Source of the DNA: Planctomycetota bacterium
GTDB taxonomy: Bacteria > Planctomycetota > Phycisphaerae > WQYP01
DNA: 64,000 nucleotides
Assembly (NCBI GenBank): GCA_021805985.1
Contig: JAJZDN010000008.1
Coordinates: 26,319 to 90,318 of the forward strand
Reading direction: 5' to 3'
This document shows, in pieces, positions 5,283 to 39,886 of the stretch. The notes below the pieces were generated by a model. The model had not been told where the DNA came from, ran no database searches, and was given only the letters and a program-made list of their open reading frames with translations. How positions within the stretch are numbered: position 1 is the first letter of the stretch; each line of letters begins with the position of its first letter. The translations under genes and the position numbers were made by a program.

Positions 5283-7115
5283 ATGAAGCCGAGAAAATTA
5301 AGCATAGTGGCGAATTCGGCCCTGGCCCACGTGGCTATTGCATTGGCTCTGTCGGGTGCGCAATGTGGGCAGGCGATCGGGGAAATTACTCCCGGCTTCA
5401 TGAAGGGTGTCCTTTCCGGCGCGATAAAGACCCGGCCACTTCTCGGCACGCTCGCCTTAAATCCTGTGAAGAGTATTGCGATCCATATAAAGCCTTTGCA
5501 CTCCAAGCTCCTGATTGGTGGCGGTGCGACGTTGAAGGAGTCCTTCCACAACACCGGAACACAGCCTGCCTCCATCGGGTTCAGCATTCCCTGGTCCGGT
5601 TCGTTGCAGAAGTTTTCGGTCACAGGCCCAGCACAACCTGTGGAACGAACGAGGCTTTCCCGTTGGTGGCCCGGTAGTTATCGCTCCTTTATGTTCCACA
5701 CTTCAGTAGCTGTCATGGCAATAAAAGGGGGCCAAGTGTTGCGCCGACCAGGCGTCCTGCTGCCCGGCTCAATCTTTGATATGACGGTGCCCGGCACGTA
5801 CCATATCCGCACGGCTACCGGACCGACAAAATCGAACCAGACGGTGATCGTAATGTTGCCTCCTAACGTCGATAATCGCCCCCTGCGTCCATTTGTTGTA
5901 CCGCCAGGCGATGCTTGGCCCCGCGCCGTCGTATGGGGCAGACCTTGGCATGGCCTTATGGTTCGCCTTTACCAAATTAAGTCCAGGAAAAGGCACGCGG
6001 AGACTGGCTTCAGGTTGAGGGTGATGATCCGTAACCGTAATAGCAGTCCAACTTCCATCAGGCTGGTGGGTGTTGCGGCGGGGGATTTCGCAAAAATGCG
6101 CATTTACGGTCCGAACGGTATTTATTCCAACGCTCGAAAAGGGAAGAAAGTTAACCTCACGAATATCCCGGTTCCATTGACCGCTTATGGCAAGCTGCTG
6201 GCGAGTGGAGGATTGGCGAAGGTAAAGAAAACAAGTTTCACGCTGCAACCCAGGACCACATACGAATACGCGCCTTTGATAATACCGAATGCAACCCATG
6301 ACTTGTCATTGCCGGGACGGTACCGATTACAGGTGGAACTCGCGGGTACGCATTGTTGGTCGAATGTTGTGTCCCTGGGCCGACAACTTTCAATAACACC
6401 GATATCGCCGTCTATTGGCGATGTCGGACCGATTCGCCCGCCGGTTGAATCAGTCAGTGGCATTACCGCACGCCTGATTCCTGGTGCATCAGGCGTGCTG
6501 GTCAAGGCCCAGCTCGTGGATGCGGGCGCAGCGAAAGCCTATGTGCTACAAGGGCCGGGAAGCGGTTGGACGTTGCGTGCGTTCAAGATAAAGGGCGGGC
6601 GGTTGCTGACGACGCCCCGGACGCCTAAGGGCCGCCATATGCAGGTTGACCGCAACATGGGTATGTCGCCCCCTGCGACGATCATAACGAGCCGGGTTGT
6701 GGGAGTTGAATCATTTCCCTTGCCCCAATATTTCGTGTTTTCGGCCCCTGGAAAGTATATCGTTAGCGCGAGCCGCTGGATTGGCATCAGAGGTCGGAAG
6801 CAATGGGTCCGCCTCACGACGAACCTTCTCGAGCTGACCCTGGACCGCGCGGGAAAGGCCACTTGGAAAACGCGAAACGTCCATTGGCCTAAGCCAGTCC
6901 CGCGAAAGGTTCCGCCAGCATCGCGATTGCAGTCGAGCGAGATTCCCAAGTCCTGTCCGGTCGCGCCCCTGGCCGAACTCGCAGCGGCTATCAATCAGCG
7001 AAATGTTCAAACGGTAACCCGCGCCGGTAACAAGGCAACACCATCGGCGTGGCCAAGGTGGCGTGGCCAAGGGGAATCTTTCAGCGCAGCATGGAGAGTA
7101 AGGCAGCGACTGTAG
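5283..7115 (+). CDS. Large secreted hypothetical protein
   Basis: AAAGAGG RBS, then a signal peptide MKPRKLSIVANSALAHVAIALALSGAQCG. The ORF track's upstream extension from 5103 has no RBS and was rejected. Confidence 0.5.
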   Translation: MKPRKLSIVANSALAHVAIALALSGAQCGQAIGEITPGFMKGVLSGAIKTRPLLGTLALNPVKSIAIHIKPLHSKLLIGGGATLKESFHNTGTQPASIGFSIPWSGSLQKFSVTGPAQPVERTRLSRWWPGSYRSFMFHTSVAVMAIKGGQVLRRPGVLLPGSIFDMTVPGTYHIRTATGPTKSNQTVIVMLPPNVDNRPLRPFVVPPGDAWPRAVVWGRPWHGLMVRLYQIKSRKRHAETGFRLRVMIRNRNSSPTSIRLVGVAAGDFAKMRIYGPNGIYSNARKGKKVNLTNIPVPLTAYGKLLASGGLAKVKKTSFTLQPRTTYEYAPLIIPNATHDLSLPGRYRLQVELAGTHCWSNVVSLGRQLSITPISPSIGDVGPIRPPVESVSGITARLIPGASGVLVKAQLVDAGAAKAYVLQGPGSGWTLRAFKIKGGRLLTTPRTPKGRHMQVDRNMGMSPPATIITSRVVGVESFPLPQYFVFSAPGKYIVSASRWIGIRGRKQWVRLTTNLLELTLDRAGKATWKTRNVHWPKPVPRKVPPASRLQSSEIPKSCPVAPLAELAAAINQRNVQTVTRAGNKATPSAWPRWRGQGESFSAAWRVRQRL

Positions 7116-7510
7116 TGCTCGAAACCCGGCTTGTCGAGGTGATCATAGGACCCGGCGGCCAGGTGGCCTGGAGGACACATGGCGTCGCATTGCCGCAGCC
7201 TCCCGTCCGGAAAATTCCGCGACCGCCAGGGTAAAGAATGCCACATTAACATTTACGCGCTGCTCCGCCAGAGGATGGTAAACTTGAAAGCTCCTGGATG
7301 ACAACAGGCTCCTGGATGCTGGCAGATGTTATCGCAGGATGTATTGTCTCACATATTGCTGCACGGTGTTTGGTGTTTGCAAGATGTCTGCAAGATGTTT
7401 GCACGCATGGGCGGTTTGAAGTAACTTCAACCCTTGTGTAAACCGCTCCTTTCGGCCGCCACCTATGACGGGGCGGGTTTGCGCATGATCCTTGGCACAG
7501 CGGCGGATTC

Positions 7511-9535
7511 GTGACACTTATGCAGCGCGACAAGCAAACTTCAAAATCAGGCCAGTCTCCACCGGATGGGACGCCTGCAGCAGAGCATCCGCAGGGTGAT
7601 AAGCGATCAGAATTTGCATCCGCGGCGCCGTGGTCGCCTCCACCCAACGACACTATCGGTGATCCCAACGAATTCACCAATTTTCAGCTTATAAAGCACA
7701 TGTTCCAATTTGTGCGGCCGGTAAAATGGCTGGCGGTTCTGGCCTGTCTGCTGGTGGGATTGGGCGTCTTTTTAGAAATATCGGCTGTAGACCTCACGCG
7801 CGTGGTGATTAATACTGTCGGCACCACATTAAGTTCAGCGGGGACGGCGATCGCTGGGGGCACGCAAAAGCCGGACTGGAATGCCTTTCGTCATGGTTCG
7901 CTGCATGTGGCGTTGATCCTGGTGGGGATGTTGGCGTTTTTTATCATTCTTTCGAGTGTATGCAATTTTTTTCGCAGCATTACCAACACCCGCTTAAGCA
8001 TGGATATGGTATTTCACATGCGATCAGCGGTGTACGATCAACTTCAGCAGGTGGGCTTTTCATTTCATGACGCCCATTCCAGCGGGCAACTGATCAACCG
8101 GGCGTTGTCGGATCTGCATAACGTGCGGTTTTTTGTGAACTTGTCGCTGGTTTCCATCGCGGAAATTGTCGGTTACACAATTGGTTATAATATTTTAATC
8201 GCCACGATCAACCCCTGGGTGGGCCTAGCGTCCTTATTGCCGGTGCCCTTTTGGATCTGGTACATTCTGCGATTTGGAAAAAAAATGCGCCCGGTGCAGC
8301 GCGATCTCATGGCCACCGGCGATCAACTGGTCAATGTGTACAGCGAAAATGTCGCCGGCGTAAACGTGGTCAAGGCTTTTGCTACCGAAACCACGGAAAC
8401 CGGCAAATACAACGCCACTGCCGATACTTATTTTTCTCAGGTGATGACCACCGTGGGCATGTGGGCGAATTTTATTCCCGTGATTCGGGGAATCGCCACG
8501 GGAGCCAATCTGCTGCTGTTTTTTCTGGGTGCCATGCTGGCGGTCAGCGGAAAACTGCACGCCGGTGATATTCTGGTATTTGGCGTAGCGATGGGAGCGA
8601 TCCTCTCACGCTTACAACAAATTAACCAGATCGCCAACCAATATCAGATGGCCGTGGTTTCCGCCCGGAGGTTTTTTGAAATTCTCTATGCGTATCCCAG
8701 TATCCCACAAGCAGCCGCATTACCGCAGTTGCCACGCGGGCCGGGCGCGGTGGAATTTTCCGGCGTTAGCTTTGGCTATCATCAGGAAAAGCCGGTCTTA
8801 AAAAATATCTCTTTTCAGGCACCTCCCGGTTCGGTTATAGCGCTGGTGGGGCCTACGGGTGCCGGCAAAACCACGATGATGCAGCTTCTCGCCCGCTTCT
8901 ATGACCCGCAGGCCGGGGCGATTTTTGTGGATGGTCATGATATTCGATCGGTTTCCCTGCGCTCGGTGCGGCAGGCTATGGGTTTTGTATTTCAGGAGAC
9001 CTTTCTTTTCTCGGACACCGTAATTAACAACATCCGCTATGGTGATCCCAAGGCCTCCGTGGAGCAGGTGGAGGCGGCGGCGCGGATTGCCCAGGCCCAT
9101 GAATTTATTATGGACATGCCAAAACAATATGACACCATGCTGGGCGAACGCGGGCTGACGCTTTCCGGAGGGCAGAAGCAGCGATTGGCCATCGCCCGGG
9201 CCATTGTAGCCAATCCGCGCATTCTCATCCTTGACGACGCCCTGGCCGCCGTGGATCCGGAGACCGAACACCTCATTCGCCGCGCTTTGGAACTCGTGTT
9301 ACAGGATCGCACCGTTTTTATCATCGCCCACCGTTTAAGTACGGTCAAAGCGGCTGATCTGGTGCTGGTGCTGGAAGAGGGAACGATTACGCAGGCCGGC
9401 ACGCATGACGTGCTATTGCGACAGCACGGGCATTACCGGGAAATTGCCCAGGTGCAGCTTGTCGGTGGCGGTCCGGGCGTCCTGCCACCGCTGGGATCAA
9501 CAGCGCGGCGCGTTGCCGCGGAGGGAACGCTATGA
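7511..9535 (+). CDS. ABC transporter permease/ATP-binding protein (exporter, heterodimer subunit A)
   Basis: An N-terminal 6-TM domain followed by Walker A GPTGAGKTT, an LSGGQKQR signature and a Walker B ILILDD. The start may be GTG at 7511 or ATG at 7520. Confidence 0.9.
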   Translation: MTLMQRDKQTSKSGQSPPDGTPAAEHPQGDKRSEFASAAPWSPPPNDTIGDPNEFTNFQLIKHMFQFVRPVKWLAVLACLLVGLGVFLEISAVDLTRVVINTVGTTLSSAGTAIAGGTQKPDWNAFRHGSLHVALILVGMLAFFIILSSVCNFFRSITNTRLSMDMVFHMRSAVYDQLQQVGFSFHDAHSSGQLINRALSDLHNVRFFVNLSLVSIAEIVGYTIGYNILIATINPWVGLASLLPVPFWIWYILRFGKKMRPVQRDLMATGDQLVNVYSENVAGVNVVKAFATETTETGKYNATADTYFSQVMTTVGMWANFIPVIRGIATGANLLLFFLGAMLAVSGKLHAGDILVFGVAMGAILSRLQQINQIANQYQMAVVSARRFFEILYAYPSIPQAAALPQLPRGPGAVEFSGVSFGYHQEKPVLKNISFQAPPGSVIALVGPTGAGKTTMMQLLARFYDPQAGAIFVDGHDIRSVSLRSVRQAMGFVFQETFLFSDTVINNIRYGDPKASVEQVEAAARIAQAHEFIMDMPKQYDTMLGERGLTLSGGQKQRLAIARAIVANPRILILDDALAAVDPETEHLIRRALELVLQDRTVFIIAHRLSTVKAADLVLVLEEGTITQAGTHDVLLRQHGHYREIAQVQLVGGGPGVLPPLGSTARRVAAEGTL

Positions 9536-15438: not shown

Positions 15439-15712
15439 CGCTCCAGCCCTTAATGCGGCCCCGGCTCGGTTTGCGGCCATGATTGGCGGCCTTGCCGGCC
15501 CAACGTAACTTATGATTTCTTTTTCTGCGTGCCATGTTCTGATCCTTAAGCCTATCAACCGTCCATTAACAAATTCAAAGCTCCGCAGTATACCCCGGAC
15601 GCCAGAAAATCGCAAAAGCCCGGACCTGATGCTGGGATCTGATGAGAAAATCCAAGCGAAAAGCCGCCTTCCCGCCTTGCCGTTGACGGCTGCTGGGGAT
15701 ACTGTGGCGGGC

Positions 15713-17236
15713 ATGTCGAATCGCCGATGGTTTAAGTTTTATTGCGTTGTGGGGGTAATTCTCGGGATTGTGTTTTTGGCCCCGACGCTGCGTGCCATGG
15801 CACCCCCTGGCCAGATGCGCATTGCCTTAGACGGCGGCGTGGTTCCCCATGTAAATTCTTGGGTAACACTGCGGCTGACACTTCCGCCAGTTTCAGGCAG
15901 CAATATTACCGTGGAACTTCAGGATCTTCGCGGCGGCCCGACTGTTCGCCGCCGCTTGGCGGTGTATCGCCGCCATATTCTTATGCCCATGCCCTATGTT
16001 TCCGGGGCGGGCGGCTTGGGCGGCGCGTGGCCGGTGGTGGTCAAGCTTTTTCGTTCCGGGAAGCTCTTGGGGGTGCTGCACGCTCAGATTGACCTGCCTT
16101 TATCACACGCCGAAGGTGCAATATCTGTTGCGGTCCTCAGAGCGATGCGGTCAGAAATTCCGGCATTATCCTTAGCGTTGGGCAAACCGGTAACACCCCT
16201 GGTATTCTCCCGCCGCCAACTGACCTCCTCGCCGGCGCTCACTGTTGCATCGTGTCGATGGTTATTGCTCAATGGGACTACCGCACAGCAACTTTCCCGC
16301 CGTCGGGTATTGGACCTATTGAGCTTGGGGATACGTCTGGTTTATTTCGGTGCCGGGCGGGGCAGCCTTTTGCCATCATCCGCTTGGAGGATCATCGGAA
16401 AATCCGCCAACGGTCTGGCGATCTGGAAAACCCTGAGGCTTAATGGTTTTTCCCGCGGCCCACCGATGGTTGTCCCTCATCTTTCCCGTATGCGATTGCC
16501 GCCGCTGCATGCCCCAACGTCATGGGAAATGGTCGCATGGGCCATTGGGCCCGTAACCATTCTCATGGCGATTCTGCTGCGCTGGGCAGTGCCACGAGGA
16601 TGGTATTTTATATTAAGCATTGCTATCGGCGTGGCGTTGCTTTCCACCGCTGCGGTTTGCTTTCTGACCGCCACCACCGCCGCAGCCCAAAGCACGTTTC
16701 ACTGGCAAACTGATTTTCCGACCGCACCGGTGCGCATAGGCACAACCATCCGAATAAATCGCGCGTTGCACGGCGCCGGCTGGGTGGCGCCCCATACGCG
16801 TGGCATCATGCTGCCGGTGGCGTGGTCGGCGCGGGCGTGGTTCGCCTTTCATGGGGTTATCAGTTTGCATCGCAACACGACCACGTTGGCCTATTCCATG
16901 ACGCGCCACGTTACCATTCTGGCCTGTCAAACCCGTGCTACGGTGACCTCCACGTTTCCGCGAGGCGCATTAAGGCCGTCCAGCGGGCCTTCAGGCGTGC
17001 GGGCTTCCGGGTTTCCAACCGGTTACAGCGCGTTATTTGCACAGGGGCAGATTTTTCTTTCCGCACATCCACGTCATGGCCGGGACTTTTATAATTGGCT
17101 CAACCGCCAACCTCCGCAGGTGCAATCTACGCTCCGCCTGTGGCTGTTGCTGCAATTTAATCCGCGGCGGCGCTATGCGCTGTATACCTCGGTGAACCGC
17201 TTGCGGGTCATGCCCCTGGCGGCTTCCCTGCACTGA
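15713..17236 (+). CDS. Hypothetical membrane protein
   Basis: Long ORF with several hydrophobic segments starting MSNRRWFKFYCVVGVILGIVFLA. No motif was recognised. The Arg-rich composition means part of it may be spurious. Confidence 0.35.
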   Translation: MSNRRWFKFYCVVGVILGIVFLAPTLRAMAPPGQMRIALDGGVVPHVNSWVTLRLTLPPVSGSNITVELQDLRGGPTVRRRLAVYRRHILMPMPYVSGAGGLGGAWPVVVKLFRSGKLLGVLHAQIDLPLSHAEGAISVAVLRAMRSEIPALSLALGKPVTPLVFSRRQLTSSPALTVASCRWLLLNGTTAQQLSRRRVLDLLSLGIRLVYFGAGRGSLLPSSAWRIIGKSANGLAIWKTLRLNGFSRGPPMVVPHLSRMRLPPLHAPTSWEMVAWAIGPVTILMAILLRWAVPRGWYFILSIAIGVALLSTAAVCFLTATTAAAQSTFHWQTDFPTAPVRIGTTIRINRALHGAGWVAPHTRGIMLPVAWSARAWFAFHGVISLHRNTTTLAYSMTRHVTILACQTRATVTSTFPRGALRPSSGPSGVRASGFPTGYSALFAQGQIFLSAHPRHGRDFYNWLNRQPPQVQSTLRLWLLLQFNPRRRYALYTSVNRLRVMPLAASLH

Positions 17237-17244
17237 TCAATGTT

Positions 17245-18183
17245 TTACAGACCCGCCAAGCGCACATCCTGCTGATCCAGGCAATGCCTTACCTGATCCA
17301 CATGTTCGCCCGTGAGTTGTTTAAGGGCTTCCAGATATTTTCGCCGCGTTTGCTGCACCACATCCGTGGGCAAGGTGGGGCCGGGCGGGCGTTTATTCCA
17401 GGTTAATGTTTCCAGATAATTTCTAACATATTGCTTATCAAAGCTGATCTGTTCCAGTCCTGGTTTGTAATCCACCAGGGGCCAGAAGCGCGAACTGTCT
17501 GGCGTGAGAACTTCATCTATAAGAATGGGGCGTCCGGTTTTCGCATCCAGTCCGAATTCAAATTTGGTGTCCGCCACAATCAGGCCGTGCAGGCGTGCCG
17601 CCTCTGCGGCAATATTGTAAAGCTTGATGGATGTATCACGTAATTCCGTCATCACGCCGCGCCCAACTTTATCGCATGCCTGATCAAACGTAATACTTTC
17701 ATCGTGCCCCTTTTCGGCCTTGGTCGTGGGCGTAAAAATGGGTGTGGGCAATTGCTGGGATAGCATCAAACCATGCGGTAATTTTACTCCGCAGATGGCA
17801 CCGTTTTTTTTGTATTCTTTCCAGCCGCCGCCGGCAATATAACCGCGTACCACGCATTCAATAGGTATCACCGCAGTTTTGCGCACCACCACCGATCGCC
17901 CAGCCAATTGCGCGCGAAAAGGCCTTAGCGCCGCGGGAAATTCCGCCGGCCGCGTGGCCAACAGATGGTGCTTGATATGCGGTGCGAAAAGTGTGAACCA
18001 GTAATTGCTTAATGCTGTGAGGATAATTCCCTTTTCCGGTATGGGCGTAGGTAAAATAACATCAAAAGCGCTGATGCGATCCGTAGCCACAATCAGCAAT
18101 TGCGTGCCAAGATCATACACATCGCGCACCTTGCCGCGCCGCAGTGGAAAACCGGGAATTTCTGTTTCTATAACCGTAGCCAA
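17245..18183 (-). CDS. purC: Phosphoribosylaminoimidazole-succinocarboxamide synthase (SAICAR synthetase, long form)
   Basis: GKVRDVYDLG, ADTKFEFG and the overall length match PurC. Confidence 0.9.
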   Translation of the reverse strand: MATVIETEIPGFPLRRGKVRDVYDLGTQLLIVATDRISAFDVILPTPIPEKGIILTALSNYWFTLFAPHIKHHLLATRPAEFPAALRPFRAQLAGRSVVVRKTAVIPIECVVRGYIAGGGWKEYKKNGAICGVKLPHGLMLSQQLPTPIFTPTTKAEKGHDESITFDQACDKVGRGVMTELRDTSIKLYNIAAEAARLHGLIVADTKFEFGLDAKTGRPILIDEVLTPDSSRFWPLVDYKPGLEQISFDKQYVRNYLETLTWNKRPPGPTLPTDVVQQTRRKYLEALKQLTGEHVDQVRHCLDQQDVRLAGL

Positions 18184-18451
18184 AATACTCTTCTGCCTTT
18201 CCAGTACCCTGAATCGCCGCTAGTTTAGAGATTCGCGGCCGGTATGCAATAGCGCCTCATTAGAGTGCCTCATTAGAGAAGAGAAAATAGAGAGTTGAAA
18301 GTAGCGCAAATTTGGCTGGCCCAAAACAGTGGCTGTGGCGGAGGCGGCGTGGCACCGGCAGAGATAGGCGCAACGTGTTGCCATATTTTTCATTATGACG
18401 GGTGTCAGTTGGCCAAGAGGGCCAGGTGTTTTAACCCTTGGCACTCAGGAG

Positions 18452-18466
18452 GGAGTTAGGAGTTAG
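18452..18466. repeat. GGAGTTA heptamer tandem repeat (2 copies), left boundary of the island
   Basis: ggagttaggagttag. Its reverse complement is found as 4 tandem copies at 21614-21646. Confidence 0.6.
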
Positions 18467-18804
18467 TGCGCGGTTACAGGCTACAGAAATCCGAGGGGGT
18501 AATTTTATTATTCTTTTCAGCGGTGCTTTTCCAATCTGCGGTAGATGGGATTGCTTTATCAGGCCTTTTCGATTTGTGACACTGCGTCACGAATTACGTG
18601 CTGTTGGCGCGCGTCGATCACACCGAGGCAAGGAGGCAGCAGAGAACTGGAGTTCCCCGCGCACCGATTAGGCACTTCGATACGCTGTATTGTGAGATGA
18701 GAAACCCGGCAGTGGGGGGGAGGCCAACGCTGCGCCGTTAGGGCGGGATTAAAGATTTCCGCAAGGCAGGTTATGATCCTGGCCGGAAAGACGAGGATTG
18801 ATCC

Positions 18805-20064
18805 ATGGTCCGATTAATTGAAACGATGAACTACCGATCACTGAAGCGCGTGCGGCAGGAGCTGGATGAGTTCCATGTGCTCGTGGGGCCTAATGCCAGC
18901 GGCAAGAGCACCTTCATGGACGTGTTGGCATTTCTAAGCCGCCTGGTGAACGATGGGTTGGATGCCGCGATTGCCGAGCGAGGTACGTTTGATGATCTCT
19001 GCTGGAACCGCGCGGGACAAAGGTTTGAATTGGCCATTGAGGTTGTCCTGCCGGAGGACTATCGGCAGCTACAGCACGTCTTTCGGGGCGTAGAGCCTTG
19101 CGCCATTCGGTATGAGTTGGCCATTGCAAAGGATGCAGCGGGCACTGTCAAGATCGTTGACGAGCAGGTGCTGCTGGCACGCGACAGCGCCACCTATGAT
19201 CCGGCGGCGTTGAGCAAGGGCATGGAGGATACGGTCTTCATGACGACCACCGGTAACGGTTCTTGGGTTAAGCTGTTAGCGACCACGAAGGCTGGCCCGG
19301 AGTATGCGCTCTCGCGGGAAGTCCAGGACCTCGCACGGCCAGATGAGGATCGATACCACGTGGTGTACCGTCCCAACGGCAAGCGGCCGATCTTTGGAAA
19401 TGTCTCCGAAATTGAGTTCCCGAGCACTGTTGCGCTGGGGCTGCTTCTAAGAGACCAAATCACCAGAGTCGATGTTCGGTCTGACGCCCTGCGTGCGCCG
19501 TCAGCTCCCGGCCAGGGGGCGAGGTTTTCTGGCGATGGGGGAAATCTTCCGTGGTTGATTGATGACCTGAAGGAGAACAAAGTACAGCAATATAGTGATT
19601 GGATCAGGCACGTGAAGACGGCGTTGCGGGGCTTCGAGAGCGTGCGGGTTGTCGAACGTCCGGAGGATCGGAAGCGGTATCTGATGATCCGGTATGCCGG
19701 CGGGCTTGAGGTGCCATCCTGGTGCTGCTCCGACGGTACGTTGTGCCTGCTGGCGCTGACTTTTCTGGCGTATCACTCCAAGCCTGGGGATGTCTATCTG
19801 GTGGAAGAACCGGAATCCCACATCCATCCACTGAACATCGAGCCGGTGATGCAATCCCTCGGCAGTGTTTATGGCGGGCAGGTGCTGGTCTCCACCCATT
19901 CGCCCGCCGTGCTGGCGTTAACGGACGTGGAGGACGTGCTGGCGTTCTCGGCTGATCCGCAAAATGGCACGCGCATTGTGCCCGGCAAGGACCATCCCCG
20001 GCTCCGGGATTGGAAGGGCGAGATAAGTCTCGGGACGCTGTTTGCCAGTGGAGTGCTGGGATGA
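18805..20064 (+). CDS. AAA_21 / ABC-type ATPase (OLD/RloA/AriA-like)
   Basis: Walker A GPNASGKST near the N-terminus, a long insert, then Walker B VYLVEEPESHIHP and an H-loop STHSP. This is the architecture of OLD/PARIS/Gabija-class ABC ATPases. Confidence 0.8.
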   Translation: MVRLIETMNYRSLKRVRQELDEFHVLVGPNASGKSTFMDVLAFLSRLVNDGLDAAIAERGTFDDLCWNRAGQRFELAIEVVLPEDYRQLQHVFRGVEPCAIRYELAIAKDAAGTVKIVDEQVLLARDSATYDPAALSKGMEDTVFMTTTGNGSWVKLLATTKAGPEYALSREVQDLARPDEDRYHVVYRPNGKRPIFGNVSEIEFPSTVALGLLLRDQITRVDVRSDALRAPSAPGQGARFSGDGGNLPWLIDDLKENKVQQYSDWIRHVKTALRGFESVRVVERPEDRKRYLMIRYAGGLEVPSWCCSDGTLCLLALTFLAYHSKPGDVYLVEEPESHIHPLNIEPVMQSLGSVYGGQVLVSTHSPAVLALTDVEDVLAFSADPQNGTRIVPGKDHPRLRDWKGEISLGTLFASGVLG

Positions 20065-20687
20065 GCAGCACGCGGGACATGGATCTGATCGTGCTGGTTC
20101 CCGGCAAAGATGAATCGGCGGCGTTAGAGGCGATGTTTGCTCGCCGGGAAGCAATTGGCATCCGTCCACTTCGCTACAAAATTGAGCGCCACGAGGAACG
20201 GGACCCGGGTTGTCGATTACAAGCACCCGTTTACCTGAGGTCGGCCATTACGCAGTTTGATCATGCGATCGTGATGTTTGACCGGGAAGGTTGCGGCAGA
20301 GAGCAGATGACTCGCGTGGAATTAGAGAAGGATTTGGAATCCAGGCTGGCAACTTCCGGTTGGGGTGACCGGGCGGCGGCAATTGTGATTGACCCCGAGC
20401 TTGAGAACTGGATATGGAGTGATTCACCGCGCGTGGATGATGTATTGGGCTGGAGAGGCAGAACACCTGATTTACGCCAGTGGCTGCGGGACCAACGCAT
20501 GTTGGCGGAAGGCCAGACCAAGCCGCCCCGGCCCAAAGAAGCAACGACCGCCGCCATGAAAAAAGTAATGAAGCGACGGACCTCTGATATCTACACGGAG
20601 ATCGCCTCGTGCGTGAGCCTGACGCGGTGTGTTGATCCGGCATTCTTGAAACTCTTGGGAGTTCTACGCGGCTGGTTTAAGGAGTAA
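20061..20687 (+). CDS. DUF4276/RloB-like small protein (predicted TOPRIM-like partner of the ATPase)
   Basis: ATGA translational coupling to the ATPase. About 208 aa with acidic motifs LIVLVPGKDES, IVMFDREGCGRE and IVIDPELENWIW, as in DUF4276/RloB-type TOPRIM-like proteins. The start was moved from 20010 to the coupled ATG at 20061. Confidence 0.5.
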   Translation: MSSTRDMDLIVLVPGKDESAALEAMFARREAIGIRPLRYKIERHEERDPGCRLQAPVYLRSAITQFDHAIVMFDREGCGREQMTRVELEKDLESRLATSGWGDRAAAIVIDPELENWIWSDSPRVDDVLGWRGRTPDLRQWLRDQRMLAEGQTKPPRPKEATTAAMKKVMKRRTSDIYTEIASCVSLTRCVDPAFLKLLGVLRGWFKE

Positions 20688-20693
20688 ATATCT

Positions 20694-20885
20694 ATGGCTA
20701 AGCAACCCTGGAAAGCGTGGCATGAGTTCGTGAAACCGCGGGATGACTTGCGCTCGGGCGAACTGCCGTTGCACATGTTCGCAGCCGACCTCTACGAAGT
20801 TATGATGCAGAACGGCAAGCGGCCGATCTACGAGAAGCCTGAGAACTTCTTCGCCCTGACTTTCCCCACGCACAACCTGTCTTGA
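20694..20885 (+). pseudogene. N-terminal fragment (63 codons) of a DUF499-type BREX/Pgl ATPase (brxC/pglY-like), truncated
   Basis: MAKQPWKAWHEFVKPRDDLRSGELPLHMFAADLYEVMM...ENFFALTFPT matches the conserved N-terminus of BrxC/PglY-family proteins, which are about 1200 aa. The ORF stops after 63 codons, right at the repeat block. Confidence 0.5.
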
Positions 20886-20900
20886 CGTCAATGATCGATG

Positions 20901-20918
20901 ACCACGGATCACGGATGG
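20901..20918. repeat. ACGGATC heptamer pair, inverted copy of the 21203-21290 array
   Basis: accacggatcacggatgg is the reverse complement of the downstream tgatccg repeat. Confidence 0.6.
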
Positions 20919-21030
20919 TTCTGAAGGCTATAGGCTCCGGGGGGCGGGGAAATCAGAATTTGCCAGTAATCGCAGCATTCATCAGTAGACCCAGCATTGG
21001 ACCGTGGATTCAGCATTGAGCAGCCAGCTC

Positions 21031-21087
21031 AGATTCCAGATCCCAAATTCCAAATTCCAGGTTCCAGGTTCCAGGTTCCAAATTCCC
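21031..21087. repeat. ATTCCAR heptamer tandem array (about 8 copies)
   Basis: agattccagatcccaaattccaaattccaggttccaggttccaggttccaaattcc. Confidence 0.8.
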
Positions 21088-21088
21088 C

Positions 21089-21170
21089 CTCTCCAATCGG
21101 GCCGCCGCCCGATCCGCTCTACTGCTCACCTCTCAAAATTCACCTCTCTAATCGGGCCGCAGCCCGATTT
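21089..21170. repeat. Two direct copies of a 27-bp element, each with a perfect GC-rich hairpin
   Basis: ctctccaatcgggccgccgcccgatcc and ctctctaatcgggccgcagcccgattt. Each contains the palindrome atcgggc-N4-gcccgat. Confidence 0.75.
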
Positions 21171-21202
21171 CCCGTGCCCCTCGCGCCCTATAGCCCCGGT
21201 AT

Positions 21203-21290
21203 TGATCCGTGATCCGTGATCCATGATCCATGATCCGTGATCCGTGATCCGTGATCCGTGATCCGTGATCCGTGATCCGTGATCCGTGAT
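21203..21290. repeat. TGATCCG heptamer tandem array (about 12 copies, two TGATCCA variants)
   Basis: tgatccgtgatccgtgatccatgatccatgatccg... read directly from the sequence. Confidence 0.9.
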
Positions 21291-21613
21291 AACTGATCAC
21301 CGCCCGCTATTTGAAAACCAAATAATCCCCCAAGATCGCATGGCCCGCAATCCACAACCGCCACGCGTCGCGTCCTAAACTCCTTGCCCTGCACGCAAAC
21401 TCCCCCTGTTTAGCGTCGTCGCCCGGCGACGAGCGCCGCCAATACCAGACCAACCCCACTGGTATCCGCGTAATCTGGGCAATCCGCAAAATCTGTGGAC
21501 CCTCCGCCTCCGCGCCCTCGACGACCTCTGTGGCTCTTTCCGGCTGTCCCCTGTAACCCGTAACCTCGCACGGCATCCCGCATTTAGCATTTAGCCGCGC
21601 AGCGCTTCCAAAA

Positions 21614-21646
21614 ACTTCTAACTCCTAACTTCTAACTCCTAAGTCC
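21614..21646. repeat. CTAACTY heptamer array (4 copies), inverted partner of 18452-18466, right boundary of the island
   Basis: cttctaactcctaacttctaactcctaagtcc. Confidence 0.6.
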
Positions 21647-22227
21647 GTTCTCGTAAACCCCAGAATACTAAAACCCAAAATAACTTGGCCATCTTGGCCA
21701 CCTTGAACCAAACCCTCTAAAATCAACCCCTTCCTCTACATGTCCAACCTGGCCACCTAGCCTCTTTAACCTGGCCTCCTTGGCCCCCTTTGGCCCCCTT
21801 GATATCCACCACAATGAGCAATCAATAAATGCTCACATATTCCAAACTCCTCATCCCTGCGTTTAAAAAACAGTTTTCCACCTTGCAGCCGGAAACGGGC
21901 GCGAAAACTCCCCGTCGCCCTTCCCGGCAAAACGCCAGACGCCGTCTGACAAATTGGAGGCCACTGCGATCGGCTCGGAATCAGCAAGCAAATCAGGAAG
22001 CATAATAATCCCGACACCGCCCGGACAATCCTCTCCGTTCCCTCCGCCACCTCTTGTGAATTAACGTCTTTTGCGTTCAGAATCATTGAATTGCTTTTTT
22101 TACCACGCAGGCGGGGGGTTGGGGTATACTTTGGGGCTGCGAAGGTGGCCTGGCCGCGGATGCGGTGGAATTTTGGGCGGGCGGTATAAAGAGTCCCGGT
22201 TGGCTATCGGGTTTGGAAAAGAGATTC

Positions 22228-22638
22228 ATGAGCAAAATACTGTTGGCAGTTTCCGAACAATGGACGCCGGATAAGCGCATGGACGCTCTGGGGCAGTGGG
22301 CCAATCGTATGGATGCGCCGATTATTGCGGTGCATGTGGTGGTGGGGCTTTCGGAAAGTGCCAAGGAAGATAGTCCGGGCGAACGGGCGCTTAAAGATGT
22401 TGTCATTCAGTTAAAAAAGACCAATCCGCGGGTAGAATCGCAGCTTTTATTTGCCAATGATCTGGTAGATGGACTTTTTCAGGCCGCTACCGAGCATGAA
22501 GCTACAATGATTGTGCTGGGGCTTTCCCGGCACGGTGTGCTGGAGCGGCTGATTGAAGGCAACATTCAGCGGGCGATTCTGAATAATAGCCGCCTGCCGA
22601 TTTTGGCTCTGCCACCCGATTGGAACGGCATTATCTGA
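22228..22638 (+). CDS. Universal stress protein family (UspA-like)
   Basis: About 137 aa. ILLAVSE...IIAVHVV...TMIVLGLSRHGVLERL matches the Usp alpha/beta fold pattern. Confidence 0.7.
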   Translation: MSKILLAVSEQWTPDKRMDALGQWANRMDAPIIAVHVVVGLSESAKEDSPGERALKDVVIQLKKTNPRVESQLLFANDLVDGLFQAATEHEATMIVLGLSRHGVLERLIEGNIQRAILNNSRLPILALPPDWNGII

Positions 22639-22682
22639 TTAAACGGTTGCCATGAAATATTATTTGAAGGTTTTACAAAATT

Positions 22683-25619
22683 ATGAACGCGCAAGCTGCC
22701 CCTGTGATTTCCAACGTTGATTCCCGAGCCGGCCGGAATTGGGCTTTACTGGAACCGGCGGGTGGGTTTGCCGCCCGCCATAACGGCCCGTCCGACGATG
22801 AAGTTGTGCTGATGCTGCAAACGCTCGGGCTGGCTTCCCTGGATGATCTGGTGGATAAGACCGTTCCGTCCGCCATCCGCATGAGCCGCAAACTGGCGCT
22901 GCCCGCGCCGCTTTCCGAACGCGCGCTATTGGAAAAATTAAATGTCATGGGATCGAAAAATAAAAAATTTCGGTCGCTCATCGGCATGGGCTATTACGGC
23001 TGCATCACGGCACCGGTTATACAGCGCAACATTCTGGAAAATCCGGGTTGGTATACCCAATATACGCCTTACCAGGCGGAAATTGCCCAAGGGCGGCTGG
23101 AAGCCTTGCTGAATTTCCAGACCATGATAGCAGAACTTACCGCATTACCTGTTTCCAATGCGTCCTTATTGGATGAAGCCACCGCCGCCGCGGAAGCCAT
23201 GGCCATGTGCCATTCCGTCGCCGAGCCGGGGCGTAACGTATTTTTCATCGCAGAAAATTGCCATCCACAAACCATTGACGTGGTGCACACCCGTGCCATG
23301 GGCCTGGGCATTACGCCGGTGGTCGGTGCTGCGTCACAAATAGATTGCAAATCCGGAAAAATCTTCGGCATGTTGGTGCAATATCCCGCAACCGACGGCC
23401 AGATTATTCCCCTGGATGAGCTGGCGAAGCAGGCCCATCACGGCGGAATTAAACTCGTGGTAGCAACAGATCTTCTGACCCTGACCATCCTGCGGCCGCC
23501 GGGAGAATTCGGAGCTGATATTGCCGTGGGTTCCAGCCAGCGGTTGGGAATGCCGATGGGGTACGGCGGCCCACATGCGGGTTTCCTGGCGGCACGGGAG
23601 GAATTTACCCGGAAAATGCCAGGACGCATTGTGGGTATTTCGCGGGATGTCAATGGCGAGCCGGCCTACCGACTGGCGATTCAAACCCGGGAACAACACA
23701 TTCGGCGGGAAAAAGCCACCAGCAACATCTGCACCGCGCAGGTTTTGCCGGCGATTATTTCTGCCGCGCACGCGATCTATCATGGCCCGCAAGGCCTGAC
23801 GGATATTGCCCTGCGCATCCATGCCTGGACGCTGGTTTTGGCCGGCGGATTGGAACGCATGGGCTACAAAATCATGCATGAACATTATTTTGATACGCTG
23901 CGAATTATTCCATCGCCCGGCGTAACAACCCAACAAATTATACAGGACGCCGCAACGCGGAAATTTAATTTCCGTCCATTCGGGGACGGAACTATTGGCT
24001 TATCCCTGGATGAATTAACGGATCTTGAAGAAGTGCACTCGCTACTGCATGTATTTTCGCAGGGCCGGCCTCTGCCTTATCTGCTGAATCAAGTGGTCCA
24101 GGATATGCGTATGCAATATCCAACGGCCCTGGCCCGTACCAGCCGTTTCCTGACGCATCCGGTATTTAATACCCACCATAGCGAAACCGAAATACAACGT
24201 TATTTGCGCATGCTGGAATCACGGGATCTTTCATTGACCACGTCCATGATTCCGCTGGGGTCATGCACAATGAAACTTAATGCCGCCGTGGAAATGATGC
24301 CCATCACCGCACCGCATTGGGCGGATGTACACCCATTCTGCCCGCCGGATCAGGCGGCGGGTTATCAGATTTTAATGAGCCAGCTTGAACGGTTTTTATG
24401 TGAAATTACAGGCTTCTCGGCCGTATCATTCCAGCCCAATGCGGGTTCTCAGGGCGAATACGCCGGCTTAATGACGATTCGGGCGTACCATAGCGGGCAG
24501 GGGCAATCGGGTAGAAATATCTGCCTGATTCCCGTTTCCGCGCATGGCACCAATCCGGCCAGTGCGACCGTCGCGGGTTTGCAGGTCGTGCCGGTGGCCT
24601 GCGATGCGCACGGCGATATTGATCTGCAGGATTTGCGCCGCCTAGCGCAACAGCATCAGGAAAATCTCTCCTGTCTGATGGCAACTTACCCCTCCACGCA
24701 CGGGGTATTTGAAGAGCATATCCGGGAAATTTGTGACATTGTTCATGCCCATGGCGGCCAAATTTACATGGACGGGGCCAACATGAACGCCCAGGTGGGC
24801 CTGTGTCGTCCGGCGGATATGGGGGCGGATGTCTGCCACTTGAATTTGCATAAAACCTTTTGTATTCCGCATGGCGGTGGCGGCCCGGGAATGGGTCCCA
24901 TCGCCGTGGCTGAACATCTGATTCCGTATTTGCCGGGCCACCCGGTAATTGGCATGGGCACCGCCAAATCCCTGGGAACCATTTCCGCGGCACCGTATGG
25001 CAGTGCTTTAATTCTTATTATTCCATGGGCATATATCAGTCTGATGAGTGGTTCAGGCCTGACCCGTGCCACGGAACTGGCCATCCTGAATGCCAATTAC
25101 ATGGCTGCCCGCTTAAAAGAACATTATCCGATCCGTTTTGTCGGCACACGCGGGTTCTGTGCCCATGAATTTATTGTGGATGCCAGAGAGTTTGAAGCCT
25201 CAGCGGGAATTAAAGTTGAAGACATCGCCAAGCGCCTCATGGACTACAGCTTTCACGCGCCGACCGTTTCCTGGCCGGAGCCAGGGACATTGATGATTGA
25301 ACCCACGGAAAGCGAAAGTAAAGCAGAGTTGGACCGTTTTTGTGATGCCATGATCGCGATCCGCAATGAAATAAGGGAAATTGAAAGCGGGAAAGCCGAT
25401 CGTAAAAACAACGTGCTGAAAAATGCTCCGCATACGGCGCGCATGTTGGCCAGCGAAACATGGCCCCATGGCTACAGCCGCGAAAAGGCTGCCTATCCGC
25501 TGGATTATCTGAAAGCCCATAAATTTTGGCCGGCGGTCGGGCGCATAGATAATCCGTATGGTGATCGTAACCTGGTGTGCTCCTGCCCACCGATGCCGCA
25601 AAAAGAGGAAATATCATGA
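22683..25619 (+). CDS. gcvP: Glycine dehydrogenase (decarboxylating), single-chain P-protein
   Basis: 978 aa. The region around SMIPLGSCTMKLNA, and the lysine context CHLNLHKTFCIPHGGGGPGMGP, are diagnostic of GcvP. Confidence 0.9.
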   Translation: MNAQAAPVISNVDSRAGRNWALLEPAGGFAARHNGPSDDEVVLMLQTLGLASLDDLVDKTVPSAIRMSRKLALPAPLSERALLEKLNVMGSKNKKFRSLIGMGYYGCITAPVIQRNILENPGWYTQYTPYQAEIAQGRLEALLNFQTMIAELTALPVSNASLLDEATAAAEAMAMCHSVAEPGRNVFFIAENCHPQTIDVVHTRAMGLGITPVVGAASQIDCKSGKIFGMLVQYPATDGQIIPLDELAKQAHHGGIKLVVATDLLTLTILRPPGEFGADIAVGSSQRLGMPMGYGGPHAGFLAAREEFTRKMPGRIVGISRDVNGEPAYRLAIQTREQHIRREKATSNICTAQVLPAIISAAHAIYHGPQGLTDIALRIHAWTLVLAGGLERMGYKIMHEHYFDTLRIIPSPGVTTQQIIQDAATRKFNFRPFGDGTIGLSLDELTDLEEVHSLLHVFSQGRPLPYLLNQVVQDMRMQYPTALARTSRFLTHPVFNTHHSETEIQRYLRMLESRDLSLTTSMIPLGSCTMKLNAAVEMMPITAPHWADVHPFCPPDQAAGYQILMSQLERFLCEITGFSAVSFQPNAGSQGEYAGLMTIRAYHSGQGQSGRNICLIPVSAHGTNPASATVAGLQVVPVACDAHGDIDLQDLRRLAQQHQENLSCLMATYPSTHGVFEEHIREICDIVHAHGGQIYMDGANMNAQVGLCRPADMGADVCHLNLHKTFCIPHGGGGPGMGPIAVAEHLIPYLPGHPVIGMGTAKSLGTISAAPYGSALILIIPWAYISLMSGSGLTRATELAILNANYMAARLKEHYPIRFVGTRGFCAHEFIVDAREFEASAGIKVEDIAKRLMDYSFHAPTVSWPEPGTLMIEPTESESKAELDRFCDAMIAIRNEIREIESGKADRKNNVLKNAPHTARMLASETWPHGYSREKAAYPLDYLKAHKFWPAVGRIDNPYGDRNLVCSCPPMPQKEEIS

Positions 25620-39744: not shown

Positions 39745-39886
39745 CCCATTTGAAATTTAAAATTTGAGATTTGAAAAACCTAAAGTTGGCGGCTGCGCGG
39801 TGAGCTTGTGTGGGCTTGATCTTGTGTATCTGTTGGCCCCCGGGGCGATTCAGGCTTATAATCGCTTTGATATTGGAGAATACTAA

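Follow-up and report, generated by a model that had tools for sequence, protein, structure and literature searches.

Here, we describe a defence islet in a stretch of 64,000 nucleotides from a bacterium of the Phycisphaerae (phylum Planctomycetota; GenBank assembly GCA_021805985.1, contig JAJZDN010000008.1, positions 26,319 to 90,318), hereafter referred to as the window. The gap of 4 kb between the housekeeping genes purC and usp is a lineage-specific insertion, and the core of the inserted DNA is an internal slice of a methylation-based anti-phage operon of the Hma/MADS type. This slice carries an intact gene pair, encoding an ABC-type ATPase and a small TOPRIM-fold protein, between the stubs of two further operon genes, and it is enclosed by two non-coding arms rich in short repeats. 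Taken as a whole, these observations are best explained by the insertion of a foreign Hma/MADS slice together with its repeat arms, in which the pair was kept working; we assign this explanation a probability of approximately 0.75.

By a purC protein scan of species-representative genomes, we identified five close relatives, all metagenome-assembled genomes (MAGs) of Planctomycetota/Phycisphaerales (L001–L005; 90–94% amino acid identity in purC). In four of them (L002–L005), purC lies directly beside usp in divergent orientation, the spacers measuring 263, 317, 318 and 432 bp, and usp is followed, as in the window, by gcvP (90–96% amino acid identity) and then by a gene for a major facilitator superfamily transporter. 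In the fifth relative, L001, both flanks are present without the island content, and the contig stops before usp. The ATPase gene, the TOPRIM gene and the gene relic next to them were absent from all five loci. A sequence-only reading of the window, made earlier by a model, had proposed such a comparison of purC–usp–gcvP synteny in order to define the empty site, and the four adjacent purC–usp sites, together with the lack of island genes in any of the five relatives, bear out its view of an insertion. Against the closest empty site (L005), flank homology stops at 18341 and restarts at 22110, and the insert was defined to the base as 18348–22108 (3761 bp). The sequence-only reading had set the island limits at 18184 and 22227; the insertion was confirmed, but the outer 164 and 119 bp of that interval are ancestral spacer. 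On the usp side, the sequence from 22110 to 22400 is 80–89% identical to L002–L005 at the nucleotide level and 84% identical to L001 over the 117 bp available. Two direct copies of AGGCGG bound the insert; at the junction of the empty sites a single GGGCGG was seen by eye, and GGCGG occurs once there versus twice in the window. The AGGCGG repeat could represent either a target-site duplication or microhomology.

By protein identity, the window is nearest to L002 (gcvP, 96.4%) and is nested inside the set of relatives. Because the window groups with L002 inside the empty-site set, one gain accounts for the pattern more parsimoniously than several precise losses would. Each of the seven metagenome contigs in which usp is identical carries the island or ends inside its right arm, and no polymorphic empty site of the same population was found among them. 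The purC–usp spacer itself is variable: L001 (118–307) and L002 (9687–9851) carry approximately 165–190 bp that are missing from L005 and the window, and this extra DNA includes CATAATTATAAATCTT, a variant of which is also present in the spacers of L003 and L004. Since the extra DNA is missing from both L005 and the window, the pre-insertion state would have resembled L005, though the window proteins are closest to those of L002.

The purC–usp gap (18184–22227, 4044 bp) holds three open reading frames (ORFs), all on the plus strand, at 18805–20064 (419 amino acids), 20061–20687 (208 amino acids) and 20694–20885 (63 amino acids). Stretches of 621 and 1342 bp are free of ORFs and make up 48.5% of the gap, in agreement with the sequence-only reading, which had described an island of about 4 kb with more than 45% non-coding DNA. 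The same reading correctly placed the start of usp, a plus-strand gene, at 22228; position 18183, which it had taken for the end of purC, is the start of this minus-strand gene. The dense repeats that it had reported were also seen by Tandem Repeats Finder and a repeat finder, nearly all of them in the right-hand stretch. What it had called a defence-like gene pair corresponds to HEC-01A/B, alias MAD3/MAD4, and its gene relic to the first 62 codons of hmaC, encoding a DUF499 ATPase; it had missed a second relic, the last 16 codons of the methylase gene hmaB, just 5' of the pair.

The core of the insert (18750–20879, 2.13 kb) is 92.2% identical at the nucleotide level to, and colinear with, the hmaB–ATPase–TOPRIM–hmaC segment of the loci L055 and L050, and it shows 82% nucleotide identity to the complete Hma operon L052. 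The gene order in all three loci is methylase gene hmaB, ATPase gene, TOPRIM gene and DUF499 ATPase gene hmaC. Colinearity of the window with Hma operons is limited to this core, with nothing beyond: DNA homology to intact operons begins at 18750 and stops at 20879. At the left end, the hmaB stub was 100% identical by tblastn to residues 137–152 of the upstream ORF of L055, the L050 counterpart of which matches PADLOC HmaB with an expectation value (E) of 3.5e-24. At the right end, the hmaC stub matched PADLOC HmaC (E 4e-7, profile positions 4–57 of 941) and showed 95% amino acid identity to residues 1–62 of L055 hmaC, a 379-amino acid fragment that matches NCBIfam DUF499_antiphage. The stub also shares 80–89% identity with the N-terminal sequences of DUF499 ATPases in several phyla, and these homologues go on with ...NLRxLVRDV...GGGKTH exactly where the 63-amino acid ORF stops. 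At 20879, an identity of approximately 94% falls to nothing at one nucleotide; this abrupt loss of hmaC homology indicates a breakpoint and not gradual decay.

These comparisons show that the core is an internal slice of an Hma/MADS operon. A complete system was not found: the methylase HmaB/mad2 and HmaC are represented by 16 and 62 codons only, and tblastn with the methylase and DUF499 ATPase of L052 and L055 and with their neighbours returned nothing besides the two stubs in the 64-kb window. Neither the helicase HmaA nor a nuclease was seen among the island ORFs, no helicase or phospholipase D (PLD) nuclease sequence having been used as a query. Since its defining components are missing, the island is not a MADS or Hma system.

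Two side observations concern the hmaC stub. An exact 19-nt direct repeat, AACGGCAAGCGGCCGATCT, which encodes NGKRPI, is located at 19375–19393 in the ATPase gene and at 20811–20829 in the hmaC stub, and the surrounding peptides are alike (D-x-Y-x-V...NGKRPI[FY]...FP[ST]). The duplication is kept in L055, is degenerate in L052 and L053 and is not part of the consensus of more distant ATPase homologues; it may have arisen from gene conversion or may reflect a shared binding motif. In addition, a search with the 63-amino acid relic, which scored only 50 candidates (P0001–P0050) and may favour short sequences, returned only short proteins of 42–109 amino acids, several on long contigs (up to 2.8 Mb) and several translated in a shifted frame from one conserved stretch of DNA (...WCGTWCCGWRART...). 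Even with these limits, public assemblies may commonly contain hmaC heads that are truncated or frameshifted.

We then characterized the two intact genes. The 419-amino acid ATPase matched Pfam AAA_21 (1.5e-24) and AAA_15 (3e-15) as well as PADLOC HEC-01A (5.7e-37) and mad3 (4.5e-35). Its alignment with MAD3 runs from end to end (protein 1–418, profile 1–427 of 427, E 5e-119), and it retains the Walker A motif (G28–K34), the signature motif, the EEPE Walker B motif (334–337) and the H-loop (T364/H365). The 208-amino acid TOPRIM protein gave weak PADLOC matches to mad4 and HEC-01B (8e-4 for the latter), scored above the curated NCBIfam MAD4 equivalog cut-off (201 versus 160 bits) and keeps the conserved acidic metal-binding residues of DUF4276/MAD4. 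DUF4276/Mad4 is a domain of the Toprim superfamily (PMC12065111). All residues invariant across 51 homologues are present in the pair, including D74, E113 and E115, of which D74 and E113 are acidic residues of the TOPRIM protein. The two genes are co-oriented and translationally coupled by a 4-bp overlap (20061–20064), an arrangement that is the same in all related loci. The cargo is therefore an intact pair of the HEC-01/MAD3–MAD4 type, a described family of which stand-alone occurrences are already known, and the suggestion of the sequence-only reading that this was the most likely site of novel biology in the window overstated the case.

The ratio of non-synonymous to synonymous substitution rates (dN/dS) for the ATPase and TOPRIM genes was 0.17 and 0.13 versus the embedded L050, 0.29 and 0.21 versus L046, and 0.16 and 0.11 versus L047. 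Pairs without hma neighbours stand alone in L044/45 (a Tepidisphaeraceae MAG, beside AIM24 genes), in L047/48 (beside proB) and in L046, where the hmaC stub has decayed (start ATG changed to CTG) and the pair is intact. In conjunction with the intact residues, the low dN/dS, the stand-alone pairs and the decay of the L046 stub favour, at the level of sequence, a module that is still functional and autonomous. The sequence-only reading had regarded the island as horizontally acquired defence cargo that has since decayed. Acquisition is supported by the empty purC–usp sites in relatives and by the Hma-type core; decay holds for the parent Hma operon, of which only stubs are left, but not for the pair, which is intact and under purifying selection.

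The L046 cassette also bears on the history of the fragment. It lies in a different context, without purC or usp and with a PEP-CTERM protein gene downstream, and its Hma homology starts at the same nucleotide as in the window. Beyond the hmaB breakpoint, L046 and the window share approximately 54–110 bp of non-Hma sequence, including a 54-nt element for which the local alignment score of 28 compares with 10.0 ± 1.4 (maximum 18) in 500 dinucleotide shuffles; the intact-operon locus L055 scores 10. The element may represent a captured promoter or operator of the stand-alone pair. The shared breakpoint and the shared non-Hma sequence suggest that the left truncation occurred once, probably before the cassette reached the purC–usp site. 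We also considered a recombination mosaic inside the core; this was rejected, the sliding identity being uniformly closer to L055 than to L046.

Next to the core, the insert consists of two non-coding arms, both with a G-rich skew, which lies on the plus strand in the left arm (+0.20) and on the minus strand in the right arm (+0.29 as read there). The left arm contains a GGCCAAGAGGGCCA hairpin followed by a T-run (18409–18432, terminator-like), two copies of GGAGTTA (18452–18466) and GGTTACAGGCTACAG, and elsewhere in the window these motifs are found only in the right arm, inverted. A series of GGCCAAG..GGCCA hairpin with T-run, GGAGTTA heptamers and GGTTACAG-type heptamers occurs in the same order on the plus strand of the left arm and the minus strand of the right arm, so the arms are partly inverted copies of each other. 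The right arm is composed, in mosaic fashion, of hairpins and of tandem arrays with units of 7 and 9 nt, short inverted copies of the array motifs being found in the left stretch and at the start of the right stretch. The motif GGAGTTAGGAGTTA gave 5 matches versus 0.04 expected, and CGGATCACGGATCA gave 13 versus 0.4 expected, all inside the purC–usp gap. Hardly any arrays of 7-nt units lie outside this gap in the 64-kb window and in approximately 90 kb from related genomes. Only two other short tandem repeats of such a type were seen in the window (7046–7072 and 39748–39776): GGCGTGGCCAAGGT in 1.9 copies, which shares the GGCCAAG core with the arm motifs, and (ATTTGAA)x4.1 in a 0.5-kb intergenic region.

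Two larger units were recognized within the right arm. At the hmaC breakpoint, a palindromic sub-element has imperfect arms of approximately 65 nt (20888–20954 and 21166–21296) around the CCAGGTT/CCAAATT array and two ATCGGGCCGC(C/A)GCCCGAT hairpins; its right arm carries (TGATCCG)x12.6, and it folds as a long hairpin (−72.9 kcal/mol, z −3.6). A repeat module of approximately 180 nt consists, in order, of GGCCAAG-type 9-mers, TTGATTTTAGAGGGTTTGGTTCAA, a GGCCAAGATGGCCA hairpin with T-run and GGAGTTA/GAAGTTA heptamers. No gene remnants were detected in the left arm with Pfam or PADLOC in the three forward frames, or in the right arm with Pfam in six frames and PADLOC in the three forward frames. 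Likewise, hmaC and hmaB of L052 and L055 had no credible match by tblastn in the right arm, where all matches had E above 1. In the region 17000–23500, Rfam at E ≤ 1 returned no RNA other than a spurious microRNA match inside the ATPase gene, and a riboswitch or small RNA explanation for the long spacers was ruled out by this null result; regarding tRNA genes or att sites, for which no dedicated tRNA scan was made, only the 6-bp direct repeat was seen. For two metagenome samples, contigs end within the (TGATCCG)n array (contig ends L042/L117 and L051/L118), even though its 88 bp fall short of the 141 that the 'k141' contig names imply; in two other samples the array was assembled in full, again with 12.6 copies. 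Such breaks would fit copy-number heterogeneity in the population.

Copies of the arms were found neither elsewhere in the window nor in the fetched loci, save for weak matches in L046 and L059. The Phycisphaerae contig L059 was the sole other locus with a shared arm motif from one metagenome scan. It carries approximately 1.2 kb of non-coding heptamer-rich DNA between ychF and a Vsr/EcoRII/Dcm restriction-modification cluster, with two tandem copies of the module (7163–7333 and 7349–7526; blastn identity 67–69% over 182–189 nt, E 2e-16 and 6e-15). In an alignment of four module copies, both 9-mer units of one L059 copy are changed together (GGCCAAG to GCCCAAG/GCCCTAG), which abolishes the hairpin and is indicative of tandem units evolving in concert; the hairpin as a conserved RNA structure under selection was rejected. 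A relative of L059, L109, is 84% identical and syntenic up to the ychF stop codon, after which L059 (6955–11573) continues with the heptamer mosaic and genes for Vsr, EcoRII endonuclease and a C5 methylase, and L109 (7090–13089) with a type I CRISPR-Cas locus that comprises Cas3 and Cas_GSU0053 and is accompanied by a (CGTTGTT)x6 array. In this Phycisphaerae lineage, the DNA downstream of ychF constitutes a defence hotspot of variable content. The most fitting description of the arms is a lineage-associated repeat mosaic accompanying acquired DNA, which may either help insertion or just accumulate where DNA is unconstrained, two or three cases being too few to choose between these options.

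Carriage of the arms or the pair by viruses was also considered and rejected. IMG/VR yielded no relatives of MAD4. Units of the GGAGTTA type are present in 49 viral contigs that differ widely in GC content, with no homology in the flanks, and the GGCCAAG hairpin motif is absent from viral contigs. In the viral contigs L056 (1059–1221), L057 (6540–6709) and L058 (1–400), CACGGAT/TGATCCG arrays and TGTTTCACGTGAAACA palindromes alternate within a higher-order repeat of 35 nt, which looks like an iteron or origin-type repeat unrelated to the arms of the window beyond the repeat unit. The coordinates of the features of the island and its flanks are summarized in Table 1. On the other side of purC, an adjoining 574-amino acid ORF (15512–17236) has no Pfam domain and diverges far more rapidly than the genes beside it, with 51–81% amino acid identity to the same relatives, compared with 90–96% for purC, usp and gcvP.

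Table 1. Features of the purC–usp gap and the adjacent genes (positions in the window; a point in the strand column marks features without assigned strand)
Feature	Position	Strand	Remarks
purC	17245-18183	-	SAICAR_synt, E 8.6e-70
purC-proximal half of ancestral divergent spacer	18184-18347	.	84–89% nucleotide identity to L001, L002 and L005; L003/L004 match only to 18255
AGGCGG direct repeat, left copy	18342-18347	.	bounds insert
Left arm	18348-18749	+	402 bp, GC skew +0.20
54-nt element common to window and L046 upstream region	18643-18696	+	local alignment score 28
hmaB (= mad2) 3' stub	18751-18801	+	last 16 codons (18751-18798), KDFRKAGYDPGRKDED, and stop
ABC-type ATPase, HEC-01A/MAD3 type	18805-20064	+	intact, 419 aa
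TOPRIM-fold protein, HEC-01B/MAD4, DUF4276-like	20061-20687	+	intact, 208 aa
hmaC (DUF499 ATPase) 5' stub	20694-20885	+	codons 1-62 homologous (20694-20879), then 2 codons into arm, stop
Right arm	20880-22108	-	1229 bp, GC skew -0.29; mosaic of 7- and 9-nt tandem arrays and hairpins
Palindromic sub-element at hmaC breakpoint	20886-21296	.	~410 bp; inverted repeats I2-I13, I17; direct repeat D5
CCAGGTT/CCAAATT array	21030-21086		8 (8.1) copies
(TGATCCG)x12.6 array	21203-21290		
Repeat module	21595-21790	-	~180 nt; partial inverted copy in left arm
(AACTCCT/AACTTCT)x5 array	21613-21646		4.9 copies
9-mer arrays	21684-21705 and 21772-21801		
AGGCGG direct repeat, right copy	22109-22114	.	bounds insert
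usp-proximal half of ancestral spacer	22109-22227	.	carries conserved GGGGTATACTTTGG motif; outside insert
usp	22228-22638	+	Usp, E 3e-8
gcvP	22683-25619		downstream of usp

Based on these results, we propose that a cassette which was probably already left-truncated before its arrival entered this Phycisphaerales lineage as 3.76 kb of foreign DNA (18348–22108) between the divergent purC and usp promoters. Entry would have occurred by illegitimate or microhomology-mediated recombination, leaving the AGGCGG repeat behind, and the parent system would have lost its helicase, methylase, DUF499 ATPase and nuclease. By analogy with OLD, PARIS and Gabija, the pair may work alone, with the ABC ATPase sensing or gating and the TOPRIM protein cutting nucleic acid on infection.

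Several observations weigh against this proposal. The island shows no compositional signal of foreign origin relative to the window (GC 0.559 versus 0.546; codon-usage z-scores −0.6 and −0.2), contrary to the deviation that the sequence-only reading had hoped to detect; the sole compositional feature at its extreme is the GC content at third codon positions of the ATPase gene (0.69), the top of the window range. The lack of deviation probably reflects a compositionally similar donor, in which case the test is uninformative here. No integrase or transposase was found among the ORFs tested in the island or nearby, and the 6-bp repeat, lying within a G-rich spacer, could be due to chance. The ATPase, at 398.2 bits, narrowly misses the cut-off of 420 of the NCBIfam MAD3 equivalog. 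The branches compared by dN/dS include Hma-embedded relatives and do not isolate the post-truncation period. In E. coli, HEC-01 protected against none of the phages tested (bioRxiv 10.1101/2024.01.29.577857). In the Pseudomonas MADS, mad3 and mad4 function as components of the complete system, and deletion of mad3 or mad4 lowered MADS defence in P. aeruginosa (bioRxiv 10.1101/2023.03.30.534895), so that a pair without its partners could be inert. Finally, quartet analysis grouped the window pair with that of the Hma-embedded L055 and not with that of L046 (63:17:12 informative sites), and with the L055 pair as its sister the breakpoint shared with L046 needs extra recombination or another explanation. 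The simplest reconciliation would be that a stand-alone cassette recombined homologously with an intact operon via the conserved stubs, which would explain the pristine look of the hmaC stub in the window.

If the pair were inert, it would be a dead remnant, debris of a broken Hma/MADS operon that is functionless without the methylase, DUF499 ATPase, nuclease and helicase and that has not yet decayed. The failure of HEC-01 in E. coli and the requirement for mad3 and mad4 within the larger MADS fit such a remnant (references as above), as do the reduction of the neighbouring genes to stubs and the 92% identity to an embedded copy, which suggests a fairly recent origin. We nevertheless regard a dead remnant as rather unlikely, for both ORFs are full length with every invariant residue, dN/dS is 0.2–0.29 even versus the likewise truncated L046, the decay of the L046 hmaC stub beside an intact pair is a case of differential preservation, independent stand-alone pairs occur in at least three other contexts, and all seven contigs with an identical usp carry the island or end in its right arm, with no empty site. 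That the island is ancestral and was deleted in the relatives agrees with its host-like composition and codon usage, and nothing direct supports deletion in the relatives. It would demand several independent precise deletions, given the four adjacent purC–usp sites, L001 without island genes and the grouping of the window with L002; moreover, the core shares 92% identity with an operon from an unrelated context, which exceeds the 84–89% between the flanking spacer and its orthologues. An ancestral island is thus extremely improbable.

Two further alternatives concern the arms. The 1.23-kb right arm starts exactly where hmaC homology stops, as it would if it were the rest of hmaC and the downstream hma genes decayed in situ. 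However, the identity is lost at a single nucleotide and not gradually; full-length hmaC and hmaB by tblastn, Pfam in six frames and PADLOC in the forward frames all failed to give a credible match; and an arm of 1.2 kb stands against more than 8 kb of missing operon. Its strand composition is also inverted relative to the coding core, and it is homologous to the non-coding repeat DNA of L059, which together leave in situ decay very improbable. Alternatively, the island may have been delivered by a non-autonomous transposable element, with the arms as ends of a composite carrier or of an element similar to a miniature inverted-repeat transposable element (MITE) and AGGCGG as its target-site duplication. 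The direct repeat lies exactly at the insert boundaries, the arms share motifs in inverted orientation with mirror-image GC skew, the sub-element of approximately 410 bp with imperfect inverted ends of approximately 65 nt borders directly on the hmaC breakpoint, another genome carries related modules, and the outermost bases show an inverted match of CGTGGCA (18348–18354) to TACCACG (22101–22107), approximately 6 of 7 nt with a 1-nt offset from the right boundary. This terminal match of 5–7 nt is, however, too short for a terminal inverted repeat; the inverted motifs are internal, at distances of 66 and 323 bp from the ends; neither the island nor its neighbourhood encodes a transposase or integrase; no second copy was seen in the window or in approximately 90 kb of relatives; and one metagenome scan yielded a single other locus with only 67–69% identity. 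Delivery by such an element is accordingly unlikely, and the insertion of an Hma/MADS slice with a working pair remains the preferred explanation.

A more general, speculative picture would be that cassettes embedded in Hma/MADS operons leave and re-enter them as units, the stubs acting as homology arms, and that in Phycisphaerae they land in defence hotspots whose mark is a transmissible mosaic of heptamers and 9-mers favouring illegitimate recombination; we hold this to be doubtful at present. Hints of such exchange are three loci with a cassette between two stubs (the window, L046 and L119, the cargo of L119 being different), the unusual conservation of the hmaC head across phyla (approximately 80–89% of amino acids) and the conflict of the L046 breakpoint with the phylogeny of the pair, which implies recombination between stand-alone and intact-operon copies. 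For the hotspots, the hints are the mosaic beside the L059 restriction-modification island, the heptamer array beside the L109 CRISPR-Cas locus and the single ychF hotspot. The L119 cassette (GCA_900174565.1, FWPU01000476.1; 7156–8207) consists of an hmaB tail of approximately 70 codons, a DUF433/DUF5615 toxin–antitoxin-like pair and a 54-codon hmaC head, is flanked by approximately 1 kb and 0.6 kb without called genes, and lacks the rest of the Hma system.

Compared with known systems, the window pair is most similar to HEC-01 (Hma-embedded candidate 01; Payne et al., bioRxiv 10.1101/2024.01.29.577857; PADLOC-DB), in which an ABC ATPase gene is followed by a small TOPRIM gene. HEC-01 is located between the methylase and DUF499 ATPase genes of Hma, exactly as in L050, L052 and L055, and candidates are also common outside hma loci; the best PADLOC matches of both window proteins are to HEC-01 or mad models. 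Unlike HEC-01 in Hma, the window cassette is unembedded, being reduced to stubs of 16 and 62 codons on its sides within a housekeeping spacer amid repeat DNA, its match to HEC-01B is weak in PADLOC (8e-4), and HEC-01 itself is without shown defence activity. The order mad2–mad3–mad4–next gene of MADS (Maestri et al., bioRxiv 10.1101/2023.03.30.534895; NF047739, NF047734) corresponds to that of hmaB stub, ATPase, TOPRIM and hmaC stub, whereas mad6–8, which are regarded as mandatory, and the methylase are absent from the island and the 64-kb window, and the MAD3 score is below its cut-off (398 versus 420 bits). The OLD family, PARIS (AriA/AriB) and Gabija (GajA) follow the same two-part logic of an ABC ATPase paired with a TOPRIM nuclease. 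The window ATPase has weak matches to PtuA and AriA, with an identity of only 10–16%, and the window TOPRIM protein is of the DUF4276 type, not DUF4435 or Toprim_Old, with the acidic motifs D-R-E-G and D-P-E-L-E versus the canonical DxD.

With respect to the arms, heptanucleotide simple-sequence repeats are a known bacterial class, including the cyanobacterial short tandemly repeated repetitive (STRR) sequences and the TAACTGA repeats of Beggiatoaceae (PMC4679880); such long simple-sequence repeats are the subject of Mrazek et al. 2007, as cited in PMC4679880. The arms resemble this class in their intergenic tandem 7-nt arrays with several different units side by side. They differ in the conserved order with 9-mers and hairpins, in the module of approximately 180 nt that is homologous between two Phycisphaerae genomes, and in that, in the sequence sampled, the arrays are concentrated beside acquired defence genes and not spread over intergenic regions.

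The purC–usp insertion is a well-supported but fairly ordinary defence islet. It provides a natural example of the fate of a broken defence operon, in which an embedded ATPase–TOPRIM pair outlives or escapes its Hma/MADS host and persists alone under purifying selection, which argues that the pair can act autonomously. Such autonomy is contested by the failure of HEC-01 in the E. coli assays and by the integral roles of mad3 and mad4 in MADS. With its defined boundaries, empty sites and a 92%-identical embedded counterpart, the insertion offers material for comparing the pair on its own with the pair inside its parent system. Together with their relative in L059, the repeat arms hint at a lineage-specific feature of Phycisphaerae defence hotspots, a lead based on two or three cases. 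Two-stub cassettes, the exchange between stand-alone and embedded forms and the repeat mosaic common to defence hotspots of Phycisphaerae are therefore worth following.

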